NCBI GenBank assembly: GCA_045589295.1
Contig: JAZNOU010000021.1
Coordinates: forward strand, 36,636 to 100,635
Source: Clostridia bacterium
GTDB taxonomy: Bacteria > Bacillota > Clostridia > RGIG6154
Length of the DNA stretch: 64,000 bases
Direction of reading: 5' to 3'
Under the pieces are notes generated by a model. The model was not told the origin of the DNA. It worked only from the letters and a program-made list of their open reading frames with translations, and searched no databases. Position numbers and translations under genes: made by a program. Of the stretch, positions 54,276 to 63,764 are shown piece by piece. The number at the start of each line of letters is the position of its first letter. Position 1 is the stretch's first letter.

Positions 54276-55811
54276 CTACTCACTCTCCACCCCGAGTTTT
54301 ATAACTATCGTATTATCAACAACTTTAATACTGTCTTTTGCCGGCCAGATTGGCATATCCTCAACTTTCCTGTTTTTCATTAAAGCTTTTTTATTATCTC
54401 CGCTTAAAAATTTATAATTCTTTCCGCAATAATCGTTTAAAGCACTGCACAACACACTCTGGCTTACTGTTTCATCATCAGCACGAATTATGTACCCATC
54501 TGTTATTCCTGTAATATCAGGTGGCAAATTTGCACTGTATTCTTTACTGTTTTCAAGTGCCCCTACAACCATAATTTTCTCGCACTTATCCGAATTTGGA
54601 ATTTGTTCTATTCTGTCAGCTATACGTATTAAAACACCATACGACCTTTCATAAGCCATCTGCGCCTTATGATAACTTACATTCGATATAATCACCTGAT
54701 TAAAAATCAAAACAACAGAGATTATCACAATTGCCCATGATTTAATGCAAGAGCACTCTTCTCCTCGTTCGTATAGGATTATAAAAAACAGGTAGAAAAC
54801 AGAATAGCCCATTAGCATTAAATTATGGTAATCAATCTGCGCATTGATAAATGCCAATATCCCTGCTCCAATTAAAAGCATAAATCCCATAGCAATCAAA
54901 ATAAAAAATTTAATCGGCGTTTTGTAAATTTTATTTATAAATATGTACTTAATATAATGTAACAGTGTAAATATAAAAATAACAATATTAATAAAGGTAA
55001 ATACGTTCAACCCATCTGAGAATTGAAAGAAACAATTAACAAAAGTTTCCTTGATAATGTACAAAGAACCTGCTAAGTCTATATTTGATAATGTTAAAGA
55101 AGAACTAAGTCCTTGATAGTCAAGTAATCCAACCTGGTAAATTACAAGTAAAATTTTCAATATAATGTAGTATAAAACCATTCCCGCAAGTCCAGATAAA
55201 AATATGCTGATGCCTCTTTTAAAAATGTCTTTGGTCGACATATTGTGATAAATTACCCTATCAATCAAATCAATCATAACAAGCATTACTGTTACTGTTA
55301 TGTACGCCTGATAAATTCCTGCTGATAAAGCAATCATAATCGCAGATAAAACGTAACGCGGTTTTTCCTTTGTTAAACACATCGCAGCAACTGTTGAAAG
55401 CAAAAATGCAACGCTGTAACCATCAGCCACATAATTATACATAAGAACAGATGTAACTGTAGGAAACGAAACGATTACTGCACCTATAATAAAAGCTGTC
55501 ACATTTTTCTGCACGTTAAGTATTTTACATATACAAGCAGTACTTAAAGCATGAAAAATAATTGTTACTATCCCATTAAAAAAGGGCAAATCATAAAACG
55601 AACTAAATGAACACACAACGGGTAAAAACCATCTGCCAAGGGCAATCATATTTTGCGAATCGTATCTGAAAACAAGCGAATCCCAATTAGGCAACCAATT
55701 TGTGATTTTATAAAAGTGTGCAAACAATCCCACAATTATAGCCGCAAAAAAACAAACCTTCCATTGAGGCTGAATATATGTATTAAGTTTTTTTAATGTT
55801 TTTTCAGGCAT
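54276..55811 (-). CDS. GT-C membrane glycosyltransferase (GtrII / glucosyl transferase family)
   Basis: Multi-TM; N.D.., LGRW, S.GIYQAY, YQG motifs; C-terminal MP.WP..DSI..VD..IVIKL; in a gtrA/gtrB context. Confidence 0.75.
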   Translation of the reverse strand: MPEKTLKKLNTYIQPQWKVCFFAAIIVGLFAHFYKITNWLPNWDSLVFRYDSQNMIALGRWFLPVVCSFSSFYDLPFFNGIVTIIFHALSTACICKILNVQKNVTAFIIGAVIVSFPTVTSVLMYNYVADGYSVAFLLSTVAAMCLTKEKPRYVLSAIMIALSAGIYQAYITVTVMLVMIDLIDRVIYHNMSTKDIFKRGISIFLSGLAGMVLYYIILKILLVIYQVGLLDYQGLSSSLTLSNIDLAGSLYIIKETFVNCFFQFSDGLNVFTFINIVIFIFTLLHYIKYIFINKIYKTPIKFFILIAMGFMLLIGAGILAFINAQIDYHNLMLMGYSVFYLFFIILYERGEECSCIKSWAIVIISVVLIFNQVIISNVSYHKAQMAYERSYGVLIRIADRIEQIPNSDKCEKIMVVGALENSKEYSANLPPDITGITDGYIIRADDETVSQSVLCSALNDYCGKNYKFLSGDNKKALMKNRKVEDMPIWPAKDSIKVVDNTIVIKLGVESE

Positions 55812-55857
55812 TCTTACCACCCCGTACATCGTTAATGTTAATCAACTTAATATTTTT

Positions 55858-56259
55858 TTACTTTTCCTTAGATTCAAGAAATATTTTTCGTGTAATAAAA
55901 TTATAAACAGGAACAATTACCATAGCAATAATTTTCACCGTCAGATAATATATGGACATTAAGTTAATACCAACCCAAAGCACAAGCTGATTAATACATA
56001 ATCCGCCAATGCTTAATACAACAAAAATTAAAAACTCGTTAACTCTGCTTTTTTCTTTACCTTTAAAAACAAAAGTCATACTTAAAATATAATTTACTGT
56101 TACCGAAACACAAAAAGAAATCATTGAAGAAAAAAGCACATTAATGTGCAATAATTCTTTTAGTATTATAAGTATTCCTACATCAACAACCGCGGCAATA
56201 CCACCTACAATTGCAAATTTGAATAATTGCGATATAAGTTGATTGTTTATTTTCTTCAA
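55858..56259 (-). CDS. GtrA family flippase
   Basis: QLFKFAIVGG....D, NYILS..FVF, four TM helices, K......V..YNFITRK.F. Confidence 0.9.
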   Translation of the reverse strand: MKKINNQLISQLFKFAIVGGIAAVVDVGILIILKELLHINVLFSSMISFCVSVTVNYILSMTFVFKGKEKSRVNEFLIFVVLSIGGLCINQLVLWVGINLMSIYYLTVKIIAMVIVPVYNFITRKIFLESKEK

Positions 56260-56365: not shown

Positions 56366-56534
56366 TGTCATTAAAGCAACTTGCTCTGCATTTCTTTTTA
56401 TTGCAAAATATATCCAAGATTTCTAAGTAACATAATAACATATATATAATTACATTGTCAACATATTTAGAAATCATATAATATAAATTACAGAAAAAAT
56501 GCGAATATTACCAAGAAATTCGGGGAAAATAGTG

Positions 56535-56563
56535 TTGACAAAGAAAAATTTTTTTGCTATACT
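56535..56563 (+). promoter_or_regulatory. sigmaA promoter of the T-box leader
   Basis: TTGACA-17nt-TATACT with extended -10 TG. Confidence 0.75.
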
Positions 56564-56569
56564 ATTTGT

Positions 56570-56790
56570 GTTGGAGACTCAGCTTTTGTGGAAAGTCTGA
56601 AAGGGAGAATACGCCGTGGACTGAAAGCGTATTTGAGATGAGTAGTAAGTTTGGGAACACTCCAATTTAAGTTATTTTAATATTTATAAAAGCGGACACA
56701 GCTTAGTGTCAATGCGGGTGGCACCGCGGGTTAAACTTTTGTTTACTCGTCCCGGGAATATTCTTATATTCCCGGGATTTTTTATTTTTA
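56570..56790 (+). promoter_or_regulatory. T-box riboswitch (probable Asn specifier AAC) upstream of aspS-gat operon
   Basis: Stem I closing TTGGAG/CTCCAA with AGGGAGA and GACTGAAAG motifs and GAAC loop; T-box AATGCGGGTGGCACCGCG; terminator TCCCGGGAATA..TATTCCCGGGA-T run. Confidence 0.9.
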
Positions 56791-56806: not shown

Positions 56807-58882
56807 ATGTACAGAACTCTATTTTGTAACGACATACGTGATGAGCACATCGGCAAAACTGTTGAACTTGCAGGTTGGGTTGATGTTGTGCGTGACCACG
56901 GTGGCGTTATATTTATCGACCTTCGTGACTACACAGGTGTAACTCAGGTTGTTGTTCACGATGAATCTCTTTTAAAAGATGTTAACCGTGAAACTGTTAT
57001 CACCGTTAGCGGCACAGTTGAAAAACGTGCTTTAGAAACAGTTAACGAAAAAATTGACACAGGTAATGTTGAACTTGTGGCAAATACTCTTAAGGTGCTT
57101 GGAAAAAGTCAAAACATGCTTCCTTTTGACGTTCGTGCATCAAGATTAAGCAAGGATGAATTAAGACTTAAATATCGTTATCTTGACCTTCGTAATCCAA
57201 AAAACCATGATAATCTTGTTAAACGTTCACAGATTATCCGCCACTTAAGAAACAAAATGGAAGACAAGGGTTTCTTAGATATGCAAACACCTATCCTTAC
57301 TGCATCATCACCTGAAGGTGCAAGAGACTTTTTGGTGCCAAGCCGTAAGCATCCGGGAAAATTCTATGCTCTTCCTCAGGCACCACAGCAGTTTAAACAG
57401 CTTTTAATGGTGTCAGGTTTTGACAGATATTTTCAGATTGCACCATGCTTCAGGGATGAAGACGCACGTGCTGACCGTTCACCCGGTGAATTTTATCAGC
57501 TCGACTTTGAAATGGCATTTGCAACACAAGAAGAAGTTTTAGATGTTTGTGAAGATGTAATTTACGACACTTTCAAAACATTCTCAGATAAAAAGATTTC
57601 TCCAAAGCCATTCAGACGTATCACTTATGCAGATGCAATGATGACATACGGTTCAGATAAGCCTGATTTAAGAAACCCGCTTATTATTTGTGATCTTACA
57701 GAATTTTTCTCGACTGTTGGCTTCCCTGCTTTTAAAGGAAAACCTGTCCGTGGTATTGTTGCAAACTGCTTTGGAAAATCTAAAAAATTCTTTGAAGATT
57801 CTCTTAAGTTTGCTACTTCACCTGAGGTTGGTCTTGGCGGTCTTGGTTATATCACACTTAAAGACGGCGTGTTCGCAGGTCCTATTGCCAAATTCTTAAC
57901 AGATGATAAAAAAGCTGAAATCATTTCTCTTACAGGCGTAAAAGAAAATGAAACCCTGTTCTTTATTTGTGATGAAAAGAAAAACGATACTGAGAAAAAA
58001 GCAGGTTTAATCAGAACGTGGCTTGCAAAAAAGGAACAGCTTGATCTTATAAATGAAGATGCATTTGAATTCTGTTTTGTTGTTGACTTCCCAATGTATG
58101 AAATTGATGAAGAAACAGGCGAAACAATCTTTACTCACAACCCATTCTCTATGCCTCAGGGCGGAATGGACGCTCTTTTAAACAAAGAGCCTACTGAAGT
58201 ATTAGCATATCAGTACGACCTTGTTGGTAACGGTATAGAACTTGCATCAGGTGCTGTTCGTAACCACGATATAGATGTTATGAGAAAGGCATTTGAAATT
58301 GCAGGTTATCCTGAAGAAGAACTCAAAAAACGTTTCAATGCTCTTTATACAGCATTCCAGTATGGTGCTCCTCCTCATGCAGGTATGGCACCTGGCATTG
58401 ACCGTATGGTTATGCTTCTTACTGATGAAGAAAAAATTCTTGATGTTATCGCATTCCCTCTTAATGGTAATGCTCAGGACTTACTCTTAGGTGCTCCAAG
58501 CGAAGTTACAAATCAACAGCTTGAAGATGTTCACCTTTTAGGCAGTGGCAGTGCTTTAGCACAACGTGCTGCATCAACAGGTGCAAATAAAGCATCTTCT
58601 GGCAAACGTTCTACTTTTTCAAACGCTCAGCAGCTTAATCAGCTTTCTCTTACTGATGAAGAAGAGGCACTTGTTCAGGGTATTTTCGGAAACATGAATG
58701 AAAAAGAACAGATTTTAGCAAAAACTAACACAGATGATGTTGAACCAATGGTACACGTTATGCCAATGACCAATGTATTGCGTGAAGACGTTCGCAATCA
58801 GCCGTTTTCAAGAGAAAGCCTTTTAGAAGGCGCTCCTGAACGCAACGATGACAGTTGGCAAGTACCAAGACTTGTAAAGTGA
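56807..58882 (+). CDS. aspS: Aspartate--tRNA(Asp/Asn) ligase fused at its C-terminus to GatC
   Basis: RDHGG..FIDLRD, LKYRYLDLR, PEGARDF, LPQAPQ.FKQ, CFRDED.RADR, GAPPHAG..PGIDR; then a Gly/Ser/Ala linker and GatC-like VEPMVHV...NVLRED.....SRE.LL..AP....WQVPRLV. Confidence 0.93.
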   Translation: MYRTLFCNDIRDEHIGKTVELAGWVDVVRDHGGVIFIDLRDYTGVTQVVVHDESLLKDVNRETVITVSGTVEKRALETVNEKIDTGNVELVANTLKVLGKSQNMLPFDVRASRLSKDELRLKYRYLDLRNPKNHDNLVKRSQIIRHLRNKMEDKGFLDMQTPILTASSPEGARDFLVPSRKHPGKFYALPQAPQQFKQLLMVSGFDRYFQIAPCFRDEDARADRSPGEFYQLDFEMAFATQEEVLDVCEDVIYDTFKTFSDKKISPKPFRRITYADAMMTYGSDKPDLRNPLIICDLTEFFSTVGFPAFKGKPVRGIVANCFGKSKKFFEDSLKFATSPEVGLGGLGYITLKDGVFAGPIAKFLTDDKKAEIISLTGVKENETLFFICDEKKNDTEKKAGLIRTWLAKKEQLDLINEDAFEFCFVVDFPMYEIDEETGETIFTHNPFSMPQGGMDALLNKEPTEVLAYQYDLVGNGIELASGAVRNHDIDVMRKAFEIAGYPEEELKKRFNALYTAFQYGAPPHAGMAPGIDRMVMLLTDEEKILDVIAFPLNGNAQDLLLGAPSEVTNQQLEDVHLLGSGSALAQRAASTGANKASSGKRSTFSNAQQLNQLSLTDEEEALVQGIFGNMNEKEQILAKTNTDDVEPMVHVMPMTNVLREDVRNQPFSRESLLEGAPERNDDSWQVPRLVK

Positions 58883-58892
58883 GGTGTTTAAA

Positions 58893-60071
58893 ATGAATTT
58901 CTATGCTACAAAAATTGGTGATGGAAACATTGCTATTGACGACACAATTCTTGTAAAAGATGTTGAAGCAACTGCAGGTTCTAAAATTTTAAGCGGTTTC
59001 AAACCTCTCTTTAGTGCAGAAGCTGTTACAAGACTTGAAAACAAAGGTTATAAAATTTCAGGAAAATCTCACGTTGGTGAGTTTGGTCTTGATTTAGTCG
59101 GTGAATTTTCTTACCTTTCAGAAAAAGAAGACACTTTAAAAGGTGCTGCAGCAGAATTAGTTGCAAAAGGCGAAGTTAAAGCCGCTTTAGGCGTTGATAT
59201 GAACGGCGCTCCAAGACGTGCAGCTGCAATTTCAGGTGTTTCATTCTTAAAACCTACCTACGGTACAGTTTCACGTTATGGTGTTATTTCTTGTGCTGCA
59301 TCTGGTGAACAGGTTGGCGTTTATGCAAAAAACACATCTGAAGTTAAAGAAATCATGGATGTAATTGCAGGTCACGATGACAAAGATGGCACAAGCTTAA
59401 GAAATGAAACTTACGACTATACAATTTCTTCTGCATCAGGCAAAAAAGTTGCTTTAATAAAAGAACTTTTTGAAAAAGCAGATAATGAAACAAAAAAAGA
59501 AATTGAAAAAAGCATTGATGTGCTTAAAGCTCAGGGTGTTTCAGTTGAAGAAATTTCATTTGATATTTTTGATACCGCAAACACTGCTTGGCAGATTCTT
59601 ATGACTGCAGAAACATGCAACAACGTATCTCGTTATGATGGTGTTAAATACGGCCACAGAGCAAAAGAATATAAAAACATTGATGAACTTTATGTTAATT
59701 CAAGAACTGAAGGATTTAATTTCCTTACAAAAGCAGTAATTTTATACGGTTCTGATGTTCTTTCAAAAAATCGTTATAAAGATTGCTATGATAAATCTTT
59801 AAAAGTTCGTAGAGTTATTGCTGAGAGATTTGAAGCTTTAATGAAAGAATATGATGCAGTTTTAACACCTGTATCAAGCAAAACTTCATACGAAAAATAT
59901 GATATTAAAGATGCATTTATGAAAGTGTTTGAAGAAAGTGTATTCACTTCTCTTGCAAACCTCATCGGCGTTCCGGCGCTTGCTTGCAAAAACGTTCAGT
60001 TTGTTGGAAAACACTTCTCAGAAAGCACACTTTTAAGCCTTGCAAACGCTTTGGAAAAGGAGGACAAATAA
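58893..60071 (+). CDS. gatA: GatA-like amidase-fold protein, truncated, catalytic residues absent
   Basis: T.GSKIL..F.P.F.A..V.RL, LKPTYGTVSRYG, IAGHD.KD.TS, N.SRYDGVKYG.R, SR.EGF, ANL.G.PA retained; GAGGTG RBS overlaps the aspS stop. Confidence 0.85.
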   Translation: MNFYATKIGDGNIAIDDTILVKDVEATAGSKILSGFKPLFSAEAVTRLENKGYKISGKSHVGEFGLDLVGEFSYLSEKEDTLKGAAAELVAKGEVKAALGVDMNGAPRRAAAISGVSFLKPTYGTVSRYGVISCAASGEQVGVYAKNTSEVKEIMDVIAGHDDKDGTSLRNETYDYTISSASGKKVALIKELFEKADNETKKEIEKSIDVLKAQGVSVEEISFDIFDTANTAWQILMTAETCNNVSRYDGVKYGHRAKEYKNIDELYVNSRTEGFNFLTKAVILYGSDVLSKNRYKDCYDKSLKVRRVIAERFEALMKEYDAVLTPVSSKTSYEKYDIKDAFMKVFEESVFTSLANLIGVPALACKNVQFVGKHFSESTLLSLANALEKEDK

Positions 60072-60072
60072 T

Positions 60073-61491
60073 ATGAACTACGAAATAGTTATTGGTCTTG
60101 AAACACACGTTGAACTTGACACAAACTCTAAAATTTTCTGTTCATGCGGTGGTCATTCATCAGCAAATGAGCCAAACGATTGCGTTTGTCCTGCTTGCAG
60201 TGGTATGCCGGGTATGCTCCCTGTTATGAACAAAAGAGTTGTTGAACTTGCAGCAACTGCAGGTCTTATGCTGGGCTGTAACATTAACAAATATACAACA
60301 TTTGACAAAAAGAACTACTACTACCCTGACCTCCCTTGTGCCTATCAGATTACTCAGATTAACCATCCGATCTGCACAGATGGTTTGGTAACTTTAAAAA
60401 CATCTTTGGGTCCAAGAGATATCCGTATTAAACAGATTCACATGGAAGAAGATGCAGGTAAACTTGTGCATATGGGAAATTCTTCATATGTAGATTTCAA
60501 CAGAACAAGCGTTCCTTTAATTGAAATTGTTACTCAGCCTGATTTCAGAAGTGCTGAAGAAGTTGTAAACTATCTTAACAAATTAAAATCAATGTTCATC
60601 CTTGGCGGAATTTCAGAATGTGAAGAAGGCGCAATGCGTTGCGATGTTAACATTTCTGTTCGTCCTGAAGGAAGCGAAGAATTTGGCGTTCGTACAGAAA
60701 TCAAAAACATGAGTTCATTCGAAGCAATTGAAAAAGCAATCAAATATGAAGCACAGCGTCATATTGATGCTTTGGAATTTGAAACTGAAGAACTCGTTCA
60801 GGAAACAAGACGTTTTGATGATGTAAGCGGAAAAACATTTGCTATGAGAAATAAAGAAACAGAAGCAGATTACCGCTACTTCCCTGATGCAAACCTTATG
60901 CCTATTATCATCGATGATGAATGGCTTGAACAGATTAAGGCTAATAAGCCTGCCGCTGTTGATGAAAAAGCAGAAGATTATCGCGCTGCAGGAATTTCCG
61001 ACAAAGAAATTGATATGCTCATTTCAAACAACAAATTAAGTACACTCTTAGATGATGTTGTTAAAATGGGTTGTAACGCAAAAGATGCTGCAGGTTGGAT
61101 TCTTACAGACTGTGCAGGTATTTTAAGAAAAGACGGCAAGACATTAAGCGAGCTTAATGTTACTGCAGAAAAACTTTCAACCATTATTAAAATGGTAGAT
61201 GATGGTAAGATCAACAGAAATGCAGGTAAGAAAATCTTAATCGCAGTTGTTGAAAGCGATGTTGATCCAGTTGCTTACTGCAAAGAAAATGGTCTTGACA
61301 AAAAGTTTGATTCATCAGCAATTGAATCCGTTATTGAAAAAGTTATTGCTGATAATGCACAGGCTGTTGAAGACTTTAAAAATGGTAAAGTTAAAGCGCT
61401 TCAGGCTCTCTTTGGTGCTTGTATGAAAGAACTTAAGGGTGCAGGTGACCCACAGATTATCAAAACTCTTCTTGAAGAAAAATTAAAATAA
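60073..61491 (+). CDS. gatB: Asp-tRNA(Asn)/Glu-tRNA(Gln) amidotransferase subunit B
   Basis: IGLETHVEL, KIFC.C, KNYYYPDLP..YQITQ, IHMEEDAGK, DFNR..VPLIEIVT.P, RCDVNIS, EIKN, QETR, DYRYFPD, C-terminal YqeY-like domain. Confidence 0.96.
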   Translation: MNYEIVIGLETHVELDTNSKIFCSCGGHSSANEPNDCVCPACSGMPGMLPVMNKRVVELAATAGLMLGCNINKYTTFDKKNYYYPDLPCAYQITQINHPICTDGLVTLKTSLGPRDIRIKQIHMEEDAGKLVHMGNSSYVDFNRTSVPLIEIVTQPDFRSAEEVVNYLNKLKSMFILGGISECEEGAMRCDVNISVRPEGSEEFGVRTEIKNMSSFEAIEKAIKYEAQRHIDALEFETEELVQETRRFDDVSGKTFAMRNKETEADYRYFPDANLMPIIIDDEWLEQIKANKPAAVDEKAEDYRAAGISDKEIDMLISNNKLSTLLDDVVKMGCNAKDAAGWILTDCAGILRKDGKTLSELNVTAEKLSTIIKMVDDGKINRNAGKKILIAVVESDVDPVAYCKENGLDKKFDSSAIESVIEKVIADNAQAVEDFKNGKVKALQALFGACMKELKGAGDPQIIKTLLEEKLK

Positions 61492-61500
61492 CAAAACTTG

Positions 61501-61532
61501 TTTGGCGGAAGTAAAATTTTACTTCCGCCAAA
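61501..61532. repeat. Perfect 32 bp palindrome between gatB and the asparaginase gene
   Basis: TTTGGCGGAAGTAAAA|TTTTACTTCCGCCAAA; no clear U tract follows on the plus strand. Confidence 0.8.
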
Positions 61533-61546
61533 TTACAGGAGAAAAT

Positions 61547-62605
61547 ATGAAAAATATTTTGCTTATATTAGTGGGCGGAACAATTTGCACTTCCATTAAC
61601 AAAGATGGTACTTTATCAGTAAGCGAAAATGCAGGTGCTTTAATCAAAGCTAATTTTGAAAACTCTGATTCACCCTATGCTAAAAATGTTAACATTGATT
61701 TAACAGAAAATTTATTTATTTTAAGCGAAAATATGACTGTTGACAAATGGAATGCCATTATACAAACATATGTTAATTATACAAGCAAAAAAAAATACGA
61801 TGGTATTATTTTTGCTCATGGAACTGACACACTCGCCTATTCATCCGCACTTTTTTCAATGCTCTTAAGCACAACGGATATTCCTGTGTTTTTTGTATCT
61901 TCTAATAGAAGACTTGATGCAAAAGATTCTAACGGAAATGAAAACTTTAAAGCTGCAGTTGAATTGATTGCAAAAGGCATTACTCCAAACGTGTATGTAA
62001 CTTACAAAAATCCATCAGATAACAGAATGTATTTGCACCTAGGTTCAAGACTTGAACAATGCAAAAACTATTCCGATGACTTTTACAGCTGTGGTATGCT
62101 TGATATAACTGATATTTGTGATGAAAACTATAAGGTTTACTTAAGCCAAATAGAAACTATGTATCCAAAGGAAAATACTAAATCATTTATATCCATATAT
62201 GATTGTCCAAAACTTTCAGAATGCATATTACTAATCCAGCCATACGTTGGCATCAACTACAGTGTGTATGATTACTCAAACTTTCGTGCTGTTTTGCATA
62301 GCACCTTCCATTCAGGAACTGCTTGTGCAGAACAAAACAGCAAAAATTCAGTTCTTCATTTGATTAAAGTTTGCAGCAAATTGGAAAAAGATATAGATAC
62401 CTACATTTCTCCGTCAAAATTAAACGGAGAAATATATGAAACCGTAAGTACTATAGCCCATTCAAAAATAGTATTTTTATATGGTTACACATTAGAAACC
62501 GCTTATGCAAAACTTTTGATTGCTTATTCCCTCTTTGACAGCAATGAAAAAAGGTCAGAATTTATTAAAACTGAATGCAATTATGAAATAATATATAAGG
62601 AATGA
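61547..62605 (+). CDS. Asparaginase/glutaminase-fold protein (type I / GatD-like)
   Basis: GGTI, ILSENM, DG...AHGTDT..Y, PV, SN.R, YETA, E.AYAKL; ATG 61547 after AGGAG. Confidence 0.82.
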   Translation: MKNILLILVGGTICTSINKDGTLSVSENAGALIKANFENSDSPYAKNVNIDLTENLFILSENMTVDKWNAIIQTYVNYTSKKKYDGIIFAHGTDTLAYSSALFSMLLSTTDIPVFFVSSNRRLDAKDSNGNENFKAAVELIAKGITPNVYVTYKNPSDNRMYLHLGSRLEQCKNYSDDFYSCGMLDITDICDENYKVYLSQIETMYPKENTKSFISIYDCPKLSECILLIQPYVGINYSVYDYSNFRAVLHSTFHSGTACAEQNSKNSVLHLIKVCSKLEKDIDTYISPSKLNGEIYETVSTIAHSKIVFLYGYTLETAYAKLLIAYSLFDSNEKRSEFIKTECNYEIIYKE

Positions 62606-62609
62606 TAAA

Positions 62610-63764
62610 ATGACAGAAAAATTATACTATGCTGACGCCTACTTAAAAAAATTTGAAGCTACAGTTTTAGCTTGCAAAAAAAACGGCGATTTTTACGATA
62701 TAATTTTAGATAAAACCGCTTTCTGTCCTGAAGGTGGCGGTCAGGGTGCCGATACCGGAATTATAAACGGAATAAAAATCATTGATGTTCAAGAATGTGG
62801 TGAAGAAATTGTTCACAAAGCAGAATCTGCAATAAACGTAGATGAAAAAGTATCAGGCGAAATTGATTGGGATTTAAGATATTCTAAAATGCAAAGTCAT
62901 TCAGGTGAACATATTGTATCAGGAATTGTTCATTCAATGTTTGGTTATACAAACTCAGGGTTTCACATGAACGAATCAACTATGACAGTAGATTTCAGTG
63001 GTCCGCTTTCATTGGAAGATATTGAAAAAGTTGAACTTGAATGCAACAAAGCAATTTATAAAAATGCGGTAATCTCTTCCTCTTTCCCATCTAAAGAAGA
63101 TGCTGAAAACTTAAGTTTCAGAAGCAAGCTTGATATAGACAGCGGCTTAAGATTAATTACTATTGACGGAATTGACTGTTGTGCTTGTTGTGCACCGCAC
63201 GTTAAGCAAACAGGTGAAATAGGAATTATAAAAATTCTGGAATTTGCTCCACACAGACAAGGCACAAGAGTAGAAATGACTGCAGGTATTAATGCACTTA
63301 AAGATTATCTTCGTTTAAGCGAATCAAACAAGGCGCTGATGAAATTATTATCAACTCCGAGATATGAAGTTAAAGATGCAGTTATTAAGCAAAATGAGGC
63401 GTTAAATGAGTTTAAAACATTAAATCAGAATATGTCAAAAAGACTTGCTCTTGCTGAACTTAAAACAATATCTGTTGGAAACAATTTATACTCAATTTCA
63501 AAAGATTTAAGTTATGATGATTTAAGACATTGTGCTAACACAATAATTGAAAATGGAACTCCCCTTTGTGTTTTATTTTCAAAGTCAACAGAAACAGATT
63601 ATTTTTATGTTGTAAGTTCTGATTTAGATGTGTCTGACATTGTAAAAACAATTAATACCACACTAAATGGTAAAGGTGGCGGCAGAGGAAATTACGCACA
63701 AGGAAAAGTTACCGTTGAAAACGAATCAATGCTTATTGAAGCAATTGAAAACATTTTAAAATAA
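62610..63764 (+). CDS. AlaX-type alanyl-tRNA editing protein with C-terminal DHHA1 domain
   Basis: LYY.DAY, LDKTAF.PEGGGQ..D.G, QSHSGEH (HxxxH), CCAPH (CxxxH), GKGGG..AQG. Confidence 0.9.
   Translation: MTEKLYYADAYLKKFEATVLACKKNGDFYDIILDKTAFCPEGGGQGADTGIINGIKIIDVQECGEEIVHKAESAINVDEKVSGEIDWDLRYSKMQSHSGEHIVSGIVHSMFGYTNSGFHMNESTMTVDFSGPLSLEDIEKVELECNKAIYKNAVISSSFPSKEDAENLSFRSKLDIDSGLRLITIDGIDCCACCAPHVKQTGEIGIIKILEFAPHRQGTRVEMTAGINALKDYLRLSESNKALMKLLSTPRYEVKDAVIKQNEALNEFKTLNQNMSKRLALAELKTISVGNNLYSISKDLSYDDLRHCANTIIENGTPLCVLFSKSTETDYFYVVSSDLDVSDIVKTINTTLNGKGGGRGNYAQGKVTVENESMLIEAIENILK

Follow-up and report, generated by a model that had tools for sequence, protein, structure and literature searches.

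The window, a stretch of 64,000 nucleotides from a gut bacterium of the Clostridia, contains a genuine translational fusion of a second aspartyl-tRNA synthetase (AspRS) with GatC. The fusion gene heads an operon with the order aspS::gatC, gatA', gatB and, here, an asparaginase-like gene and alaX. This operon is predicted to be switched by tRNA-Asn, and its product is probably a transamidosome assembled for good, with free ammonia as the likeliest nitrogen donor. The features concerned are as follows.

56535..56563, + strand: sigma-70-type promoter (TTGACA, 17 nt, TG-TATACT; 11/12 positions in a consensus scan)
56573..56778, + strand: T-box leader with Stem I, in which the specifier AAC (56656-56658) precedes a purine
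56719-56722, + strand: T-box bulge UGGC within the leader of the aspS::gatC operon
56749-56778, + strand: terminator hairpin of 13 pairs, then a T run; it overlaps the T-box sequence
56807..58882, + strand: aspS::gatC fusion ORF, 691 aa in one open frame
56807..58537, + strand: bacterial-type AspRS part, residues 1-577 (NF001750, TIGR00459, PF01336, PF00152, PF02938)
58538..58612, + strand: linker, residues 578-602, 25 aa, rich in Ala, Gly, Ser, and Lys
58613..58882, + strand: GatC domain, residues 603-691, and stop codon (TIGR00135, PF02686)
58893..60071, + strand: gatA', shortened GatA homologue of 392 aa, glutaminase-dead by its sequence
60073..61491, + strand: gatB, apparently intact (NF004012, PF02934, PF02637)
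61547..62605, + strand: asparaginase-family gene (PF00710), an accessory operon member
62610..63764, + strand: AlaX-like gene (PF07973, PF02272, PF01411), homologue of the AlaRS editing domain with DHHA1

In profile searches, the AspRS part scored 733.1 bits with NF001750 (whole protein; cut-off 443) and 603.2 bits with TIGR00459 (cut-off 373.85). It consists of the OB anticodon-binding domain (PF01336, residues 19-98) and the class II core (PF00152, 117-553), with the bacterial GAD insertion at 325-393 (PF02938). The RDHGG motif corresponds to residues 29-33, and the closest solved structures are bacterial AspRSs (~425 bits). The GatC domain is found at residues 603-690. As the preliminary description of this DNA had expected, the tail is above the curated cut-offs of GatC profiles: TIGR00135 gave 48.4 bits with the whole protein and 52.7 bits with the tail alone, a small margin over the cut-off of 47.1, with model positions 4/5-92 of 93 covered, and PF02686 gave 41.7 and 45.7 bits, respectively (cut-off 23; positions 1-66 of 66). 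The dN/dS of this domain is 0.07-0.23. Across 72 fusions, the linker has a length of 23-27 aa with 55% Ala/Gly/Ser and 18% Lys/Arg, and its mean column identity is 0.69, compared with 0.93 for AspRS and 0.83 for GatC. An AlphaFold2 model of the whole fusion, made from 61 close relatives, was too poor for use (mean pLDDT 52, pTM 0.31), and therefore no conclusion on disorder of the linker was drawn from it.

The AspRS frame was said to run without a stop into GatC. The ORF translation indeed holds APSEVTNQQLEDVHL, LGSGSALAQRAASTGANKASSGKR, LSLTDEEE, and TDDVEPMVHV, together with the quoted GatC strings NVLRED, SRESLLEGAP, and WQVPRLVK. Likewise, neither an internal start nor a separate gatC exists: there is no in-frame ATG, GTG, or TTG between residues 555 and 629, none of the start codons after residue 629 has a Shine-Dalgarno-like motif, and apart from the fused copy nothing in the genome (1.54 Mb, 97% complete) matches PF02686. 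The occurrence of the same fusion in related genomes was borne out by 71 other complete ORFs of 689-693 aa in species-representative genomes; gatA' and gatB come next in every case in which the contig extends beyond the fused ORF. In a large protein search, the tail matched 722 proteins with lengths of 380-1210 aa. Both GatC and AspRS domains are present in each of the best 120 matches, and 116 of the 120 are 687-693 aa long. In the class Clostridia, GatC was detected in 281 of 401 sampled genomes, with at least six long frames among the matches listed.

A stop codon or frameshift missed in metagenome assembly might mimic such a fusion. The genome is a draft in 22 contigs, and one of 80 related loci (L024) has a stop within the AspRS part. 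However, an assembly check at the linker, as had been proposed, showed that contigs from four runs of four studies, one of which may be the source sample, cover positions 58508-58885 with zero indels, and a single contig of 4825 nt spans the whole kilobase examined around the junction. The 71 further fused ORFs, the codon-level purifying selection over the linker and GatC, and the lack of both an alternative start codon and a stand-alone gatC also speak against an artefact, the probability of which is negligible.

The fusion claimed in the preliminary description is real, but the Asn T-box described below and an existing model of the architecture had been overlooked. The AspRS-GatC architecture is already catalogued as NF009460 (PRK12820, bifunctional aspartyl-tRNA synthetase/aspartyl/glutamyl-tRNA amidotransferase subunit C). 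Its domains are arranged in the same order from end to end: residues 5-678 of the window protein align with positions 24-710 of the 723 positions of the model. With 456.6 bits, far under the model's cut-off of 1379, the window protein falls outside that equivalog, as compared by model score. The plain AspRS model fits better (733 versus 456.6 bits); therefore, the window protein belongs to a different sequence lineage from NF009460. An Atlas cluster of 706 aa, mostly from Thermodesulfobacteriota, may correspond to the NF009460 members. In addition, a second fusion lineage was found in Clostridia (L112-L115; 692-695 aa), in which AspRS, a short linker rich in Ala, Gly, Ser, and Lys, and GatC are followed by gatA and gatB. 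Its AspRS core is 40-43% identical to that of the window lineage, the linker sequence is unrelated, and RDMGG is found where the window lineage has RDHGG. GatC of this second lineage is canonical (80-92 bits with TIGR00135), and its GatA is of full length (~488-491 aa) with the Lys, GGSSGG, and DTGGS intact. The T-box core motif was found upstream in one of the four loci.

The operon of the window begins with a promoter whose TTGACA and TATAAT-like boxes are kept in an alignment of 60 leaders. GTGTTGACAAAG had been considered as the base of Stem I; this was rejected, since the leader alignment shows it to be the -35 box of the promoter. Rfam RF00230 matched positions 56526-56757 at E 3.6e-8; the 47.6 bits reached here are fewer than the 93 of the gathering score, and the pairing of Stem I was judged by eye. 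The AAC-plus-purine element is conserved in the leaders, and GGGAACACTC is invariant among those displayed in the alignment. The genome has one tRNA-Asn(GUU), with the discriminator G73; tRNA-His has C73. The UGGC bulge matches tRNA-Asn, because its C pairs with the discriminator G73. The leader thus has the specifier, bulge, and terminator of a T-box, and its predicted specificity is for Asn (AAC). Uncharged tRNA-Asn would switch the operon on through this AAC-specifier T-box. A similar arrangement in Clostridium acetobutylicum, said to have been described by Saad et al. in J Biol Chem in 2012, is reportedly a T-box(Asn)-controlled aspS-gatCAB operon; the likeness lies in the tRNA-Asn-sensing control of genes for a non-discriminating AspRS and the amidotransferase, whereas that operon reportedly has unfused genes and a normal GatA.

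The gatA' gene starts 11 nt past the stop codon of the fusion, behind a GAGGTG motif. Compared with canonical GatCAB (3h0l_A, 3al0_A, 2df4_A), about 380 residues of GatA' are aligned with E values of 1e-56 to 1e-58. The alignment to solved GatA chains begins at about their residues 63-76, which means that ~50-60 N-terminal residues are missing. The catalytic triad of GatA is Ser-cisSer-Lys (PMC2330236). In the window GatA', Asp stands in the place of the catalytic Lys and Ala in that of the nucleophile Ser, and other residues have taken over from GGSSGGS. All 74 GatA' copies have Asp in place of Lys and no GGSSGG/cis-Ser motif, and the nucleophile position is A, S, T, or G. It should be mentioned that retention of the Lys as VKD in ILVKDVE was considered and rejected; HMMER and MAFFT set the catalytic Lys opposite the Asp in IAIDDT. 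The score of GatA' with TIGR00132 (273.9) is below the cut-off of 481.1, and yet its dN/dS is 0.07-0.14. As judged from these residues, gatA' is a conserved pseudo-glutaminase. GatB, in contrast, appears intact (564.6 bits with the equivalog model NF004012; cut-off 338) and follows gatA' in all 65 loci reaching that far. Since GatA' is both catalytically dead, as judged from these residues, and N-terminally shortened, this is no ordinary GatCAB; GatC is also no free subunit here. The preliminary description had missed this: the fusion stands, whereas the neighbouring GatA lacks the glutaminase triad.

None of AsnRS, AsnA, and AsnB was found in this genome (G000), although its completeness of 97% makes the absence not absolute. 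Within the order, AsnRS above the family cut-off was detected in 8 of the 12 genomes without the fusion but in 0/6 genomes with it; GlnRS is present in 18/18. As AsnRS, AsnA, and AsnB are missing, the module should be the only route to Asn-tRNA(Asn) in this genome, and, in the genomes having the module and lacking AsnRS, it would act as the asparaginyl-tRNA synthetase. An AsnRS hidden in assembly gaps might make the module dispensable: in G000, the archaeal-type AspRS gene is 185 nt away from the end of its contig, and G005 and G007 of the same genus have AsnRS just downstream of that gene. However, this neighbourhood is assembled without AsnRS in three fusion genomes (G006, of the same genus, G008, and G003). 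Together with the 0/6 count, the purifying selection on all module genes, and the control by a tRNA-Asn switch, this makes a hidden AsnRS highly improbable.

The setting expected for a non-discriminating AspRS was found in this 97%-complete genome, namely no detected AsnRS in the presence of tRNA-Asn and an intact GatB. In addition, tRNA-Asn has U1-A72 and tRNA-Asp has G1-C72, which fits the GatB recognition rule outlined in PMC2330236. Five of the six genomes with the fusion also have a second, unfused AspRS. The archaeal-type AspRS of this genome itself bears the NCBIfam name aspartate--tRNA(Asn) ligase and may thus be another candidate for the charging of tRNA-Asn. The His in the RDHGG loop, which we take to be a determinant of relaxed anticodon recognition in non-discriminating AspRSs, had been put forward as a mark of such an enzyme. 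This residue is invariant in 72/72 fusions, and none of the nine unfused AspRSs of bacterial type in the order has it. Two of these nine, however, belong to genomes in which GatCAB but no AsnRS was detected, and in which non-discrimination is expected; they have Leu at this position, and the second fusion lineage has Met. The His is therefore no proven marker of relaxed specificity.

AspRS is a dimer. Together with GatC holding GatA and GatB, this means that a permanently assembled transamidosome is expected. The predicted complex is (AspRS-GatC)2 with two GatA'-GatB units, in which the synthetase would make Asp-tRNA(Asn) and GatB would amidate it without release. The idea, already put forward in the preliminary description, of GatC as a tether between synthetase and amidotransferase, from which channelling might result, is reasonable, because GatC is described as a helper for GatA folding and GatA-GatB assembly (PMC2330236). 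For the GatC tail of the window, a binding to GatA' and GatB is suggested by the order and joint conservation of the genes. The non-covalent Asn-transamidosome of non-discriminating AspRS, GatCAB, and tRNA-Asn (3KFU, 4WJ3) unites the same three activities (PMC7373986, PMC2330236), and its AspRS and GatA chains are sequence relatives of the window proteins. The window system differs from it by the covalent link that GatC provides and by the lack of a glutaminase site in GatA'. As GatA' is a conserved pseudo-enzyme, the amide nitrogen cannot come from glutamine hydrolysis by GatA. The missing glutaminase site alone points to free ammonia as the most likely donor. Free ammonia is plentiful in the gut. 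Yeast GatFAB can transamidate with NH4Cl instead of glutamine (PMC4027206). In about one-third of the loci, the operon-encoded asparaginase-family protein might be an alternative nitrogen source. A broader model is tentative and falls somewhat short of an even chance: the module may be a self-contained, horizontally exchanged "AsnRS in pieces", in which an AspRS dedicated to tRNA-Asn is tied via GatC to GatB on a dead GatA, nitrogen is obtained from free ammonia or, in some species, from ammonia that the asparaginase-like protein releases, and this glutamine-independent system has replaced AsnRS in many gut Clostridia.

The fusion might instead be mainly a device for assembly, by which a truncated and fragile pseudo-GatA would find its partners in equal amounts and be assembled co-translationally, with channelling as a by-product or absent. 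The published helper role of GatC (PMC2330236) would suit this, as would the distance of only 11 nt between the fusion stop codon and the gatA' start. The window GatC is also more divergent (48-53 bits with TIGR00135) than that of the intact-GatA lineage (80-92 bits), as if it had co-evolved with GatA'. However, the same stoichiometry could be obtained by a fusion to any protein of the operon or by simple translational coupling, non-covalent transamidosomes of non-discriminating AspRS and GatCAB are already known (PMC7373986, PMC2330236), and the lineage with normal GatA is fused as well. Because that second Clostridia lineage keeps an intact GatA, inactivation of GatA does not explain the fusion; judging from the two lineages, the two events are separable. 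Assembly as the main role seems unlikely.

A similarly low probability is given to a replacement glutaminase or asparaginase that would dock on GatA'-GatB and supply nitrogen in a GatD-like manner, instead of free ammonia. Directly after gatB, the asparaginase-family gene is found in the window and in 19 of the 58 loci with enough downstream sequence, and within the order, close orthologues (57-61% identity) occur in five of six genomes with the fusion but in none of 12 others. Its GGT and HGTDT motifs and the residues T12, T93, and D94 are invariant, its dN/dS is ~0.1, and its closest solved sequence is GatD (2d6f). An asparaginase-family protein encoded beside a GatB/GatE-type kinase subunit also resembles archaeal GatDE. 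However, the gene is missing from the operon in 39 of the 58 loci, so that only about one-third have it while the GatA homologue is kept, and five genomes without the operon copy have only paralogues of 30-37% identity. GatD and type I asparaginases have a Thr nucleophile and a Thr-Lys-Asp triad (PMC2330236), whereas the column of the triad Lys appears here as invariant Gln171-Cys172. The alignment begins at GatD residue 90, which means that the N-terminal domain of GatD is missing. The predicted structure (pLDDT 92) has a type I asparaginase fold (TM ~0.7), at least as near to ordinary type I asparaginases as to GatD, and the scores of the protein are under all curated cut-offs.

Full-text literature searches gave no relevant paper on either a naturally occurring fusion of AspRS and GatC or a GatA that has lost its activity; the only match to "aspS-gatC" was an artificial operon, and in PMC2700814 all that is reported in this respect is a conserved sequence located 5' of gatCAB in Geobacter. 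Transamidosomes are described as dynamic, non-covalent particles that shield the ribosome from mischarged Asp-tRNA(Asn). With a covalent natural version, channelling could be studied structurally and kinetically on a complex that is stable and of fixed stoichiometry. The dead GatA raises the question of the nitrogen source of a tRNA-dependent amidotransferase having no glutaminase, and habitats rich in ammonia may permit an indirect route to Asn-tRNA that does not depend on glutamine. The sources label the fusion genes merely "aspartate--tRNA ligase". Because of this plain naming and the score of GatA' below the cut-off, pathway reconstructions will mis-state how asparagine is made and charged in many gut and rumen Clostridia. 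The RNA runs contained 0.04 of the words of the stretch. The AlaX-like gene at the end of the operon is found downstream of gatB in 17 of the 58 loci.

The fused gene aspS::gatC is the first coding sequence of an operon on the forward strand, which is arranged in the following order:

56535-56563, +, promoter, the first element
between the promoter and aspS::gatC, T-box leader
56807..58882, +, aspS::gatC, a single open frame of 691 aa
58893-60071, +, gatA'
60073-61491, +, gatB, scoring above the equivalog cut-off
61547-62605, +, asparaginase-family gene
62610-63764, +, AlaX-like gene (AlaRS editing domain and DHHA1), the operon end

The spacer between gatB and the asparaginase-family gene contains a perfect 13-bp inverted repeat without a T run (61503-61532; GGCGGAAGTAAAA/TTTTACTTCCGCC), a possible processing or stability element. 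Upstream of the operon and divergent from it (54276-56259, reverse strand), two membrane proteins are encoded, a multi-pass protein of 517 aa and a small one of 133 aa.

The peptide strings that the preliminary description had quoted are all present in the 691-aa translation. Residues 1-577 form a complete AspRS of the bacterial type (NF001750, 733 bits; cut-off 443), and profile searches located the OB, class II core and GAD domains within them. The GatC match, at residues 603-690, spans almost the entire model: TIGR00135 gave 48.4 bits with the whole protein and 52.7 with the tail alone (cut-off 47.1), and PF02686 gave 41.7 and 45.7 bits (cut-off 23). The assignment of the tail to GatC is thus confirmed. 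The absence of an internal start and of a separate gatC was also borne out: in-frame ATG, GTG and TTG are lacking from residues 555-629, no Shine-Dalgarno-like motif precedes the later in-frame starts, and the fused copy is the sole GatC found in the source genome, G000, whose assembly (1.54 Mb in 22 contigs, 35% G+C) is 97% complete. Contigs from four public runs, each belonging to a different study, cover the junction (58508-58885) with zero inserted or deleted letters, although one of these runs may be the source sample; a single 4825-nt contig crosses the whole kilobase compared around it.

When only the tail was searched against proteins of 380-1210 aa, 722 matches were obtained. The best 120 of these all carry both GatC and AspRS domains; 116 are 687-693 aa long and four are shorter fragments. 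Those of the 120 that are named in their sources are called simply "aspartate--tRNA ligase"; they come from MAGs of Clostridia, Ruminococcaceae or Oscillospiraceae. In a collection of species-representative genomes, 296 stretches encode a relative of the fusion, and the best 80 were retained (79-91% identity; gut and rumen MAGs). These 80 loci and sister genomes provided 71 more complete fused ORFs of 689-693 aa. The AspRS part is incomplete in five of the 80 (L057, L065, L070 and L089 end with the stretch, and the match in L081 stops at residue 513), and in one, L024, it contains a stop codon. In the aligned fusions the linker is 23-27 aa long (55% Ala/Gly/Ser, 18% Lys/Arg); its middle is variable, and it lies between a conserved LGxGxALAxR segment and the strongly conserved KRSTFSNAQQLNQ lead-in to GatC. 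For dN/dS, the AspRS part gave 0.03-0.10 and the GatC part 0.07-0.23. The fusion is genuine, conserved and under selection. The proposal that GatC tethers the synthetase to the amidotransferase is reasonable and unproven.

G000 contains three class IIb synthetase genes: the fusion, LysRS and an archaeal-type AspRS, to which NCBIfam gives the name aspartate--tRNA(Asn) ligase (436 bits; cut-off 353). Profile searches of this genome found neither AsnRS nor AsnA, and its only Asn_synthase-family matches, judged by eye from the sequences, are MnmA-like and GuaA-like proteins. GlnRS adjoins GluRS in G000, and is present in all 18 genomes compared from the GTDB order (partial at contig ends in two). 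The distribution of AsnRS in these genomes is as follows.

State of GatC and AsnRS over the cut-off in 18 genomes of the order
Fused GatC: six genomes (G000, G003, G006, G008, G014, which is only 65% complete, and G017); AsnRS in 0 of 6
Free gatC: five genomes, two from the same genus; AsnRS in 2 of 5
No GatC: seven genomes; AsnRS in 6 of 7

In the three free gatC loci fetched (G005, G007 and G009), the gene lies beside a full-length, site-intact GatA, followed by GatB. In G005, from the same genus as G000, AsnRS is about 1 kb 3' of the archaeal-type AspRS, and the spacing in G007 is the same. One caveat is that the archaeal-type AspRS gene of G000 lies 185 nt from a contig end; in the fusion genomes G003, G006 (of the same genus as G000) and G008, however, the neighbourhood of this gene is assembled and lacks AsnRS. 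The module is probably the route to Asn-tRNA in the fusion genomes, replacing AsnRS. A second, unfused AspRS is present in five of the six fusion genomes, its type being profile-confirmed for G000 only; for this reason, the fused AspRS appears to be an additional enzyme dedicated to tRNA-Asn. The first pairs of the G000 tRNAs, U1-A72 in tRNA-Asn and G1-C72 in tRNA-Asp, fit the bacterial GatB recognition rule as stated in an excerpt of PMC2330236. As to the gene arrangement, a 341-aa ORF and AsnRS are directly 3' of the archaeal-type AspRS in module-free genomes of the same genus (L116, the AsnRS neighbourhood at G005:C4:64500-70500), and both are missing at the corresponding place in fusion genomes (L117, L118, L119 and L120).

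The preliminary description took the His of RDHGG to fit a non-discriminating AspRS. All 72 fusions carry RDHGG, whose His is described as a mark of relaxed specificity, and the discriminating Thermus AspRS has RDLGG at the same place of the alignment. In nine unfused bacterial-type AspRSs of the order, the His position is occupied by Leu or another residue. Two of these nine, both with Leu, come from genomes (82% and 72% complete) with conventional GatCAB and no AsnRS detected, so that the comparison within the order gives a mixed picture.

The leader matches the Rfam T-box model with 47.6 bits (E 3.6e-8), below the gathering score of 93. In an alignment of 60 leaders, the promoter boxes, the T-box sequence with the bulge UGGC, and a 13-pair terminator are conserved. 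The 3' side of Stem I reads GGG-AAC-A-CUCC in the leaders displayed, with Stem I pairing judged by eye. The 3' end of the G000 tRNA-Asn(GUU), G73-CCA, pairs with UGGC. A CAC (His) specifier in the same letters does not fit, because tRNA-His ends in C73-CCA.

In the published mechanism, GatA uses a Ser-cisSer-Lys triad with Ser178 as the nucleophile (excerpt of PMC2330236). Alignment with solved GatA chains indicated that in GatA' the catalytic Lys is replaced by Asp (IAVKDN versus IAIDDT), GGSSGGS has given way to other residues and is deleted in part, the nucleophilic Ser of DTGGS is Ala (DMNGA), and about 50-60 N-terminal residues are missing. Among 74 copies (73 loci and the window), the Lys and the GGSSGG motif are absent from all, the nucleophile position is occupied by A, S, T or G, and the proteins begin near residue 48-53 of conventional GatA. 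In spite of this loss, the copies are 65-78% identical to that of the window, with dN/dS of 0.07-0.14: the protein is being maintained, and the gene is not in decay. In a library of 1.84 billion representative proteins, the 150 best representatives of 50%-identity clusters (P0121-P0270) were classified: 63 have neither the Lys nor the cis-Ser motif, 71 have an intact site, seven are partial, and nine do not cover the site. A quick maximum-likelihood tree was built from 132 of these rows (those of 340-560 aa, together with the window's copy and three conventional GatAs). In it, GatA' of the window falls in a clade of 12-15 rows, all dead (SH-aLRT 95-98). Since the dead state as a whole requires 10 or more changes on branches with good support, loss of the glutaminase site is probably recurrent, and the numerous dead GatA homologues would have more than one origin.

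Of 58 loci whose sequence extends 1300 nt or more beyond gatB, 19 have the asparaginase-family gene immediately after gatB and 17 have alaX downstream; five have both genes and 27 neither. No other same-strand gene recurs after gatB. The asparaginase-family protein has invariant GGT and HGTDT motifs, an invariant Gln-Cys at the triad-Lys column, and a predicted type I asparaginase fold (pLDDT 92). It lacks the N-terminal domain of archaeal GatD, and by fold GatD is no closer to it than ordinary asparaginases are. Within the order, close orthologues are found in five of six fusion genomes and in none of the 12 others; five genomes without the operon copy have only paralogues of 30-37% identity. 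Because most operons are without this gene, and 20 mM NH4Cl can bypass the glutaminase step in yeast GatFAB (excerpt of PMC4027206), free ammonia is most likely the donor. The asparaginase-like protein may then be an accessory ammonia supplier in a subset of genomes. As the AlaX-like gene recurs, a second fidelity function may be linked to the module.

Four genomes from two other families of Clostridia (L112-L115, at G390:C6, G113:C83, G352:C9 and G173:C9) carry a second AspRS-GatC lineage, in which gatA and gatB also come after the fusion. These proteins (692-695 aa; GatC part, 80-92 bits) differ from that of the window: the AspRS core is 40-43% identical, RDMGG replaces RDHGG, and the linker is unrelated, which suggests independent fusion events. 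The full-length GatA of these genomes (about 488-491 aa) retains Lys, GGSSGG and DTGGS; therefore, the fusion is not tied to GatA inactivation. The architecture is already catalogued as NCBIfam NF009460 (PRK12820), which aligns along the entire window protein, yet with 456.6 bits against a cut-off of 1379; L112-L115 score 631-654 bits, also below it. In the Atlas, one cluster (692 aa, Bacillota) has the automatic name "Multifunctional fusion protein", and another (706 aa) comes mostly from Thermodesulfobacteriota. Full-text searches of the open-access literature found no paper on a natural AspRS-GatC fusion or an inactive GatA. The glutaminase-dead GatA scaffold in an AsnRS-replacing module is the more unusual feature than the fusion.

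The LysRS identity to G000 falls from 95% in the same genus to 73-78% in distant module-carrying genomes, whereas that of the fused AspRS is 83-92% throughout and only 89% in the same-genus genome. Within one genus, moreover, some genomes have the module and others AsnRS with conventional gatCAB. The flat identity and the mixed genus hint that the module may have been exchanged horizontally.
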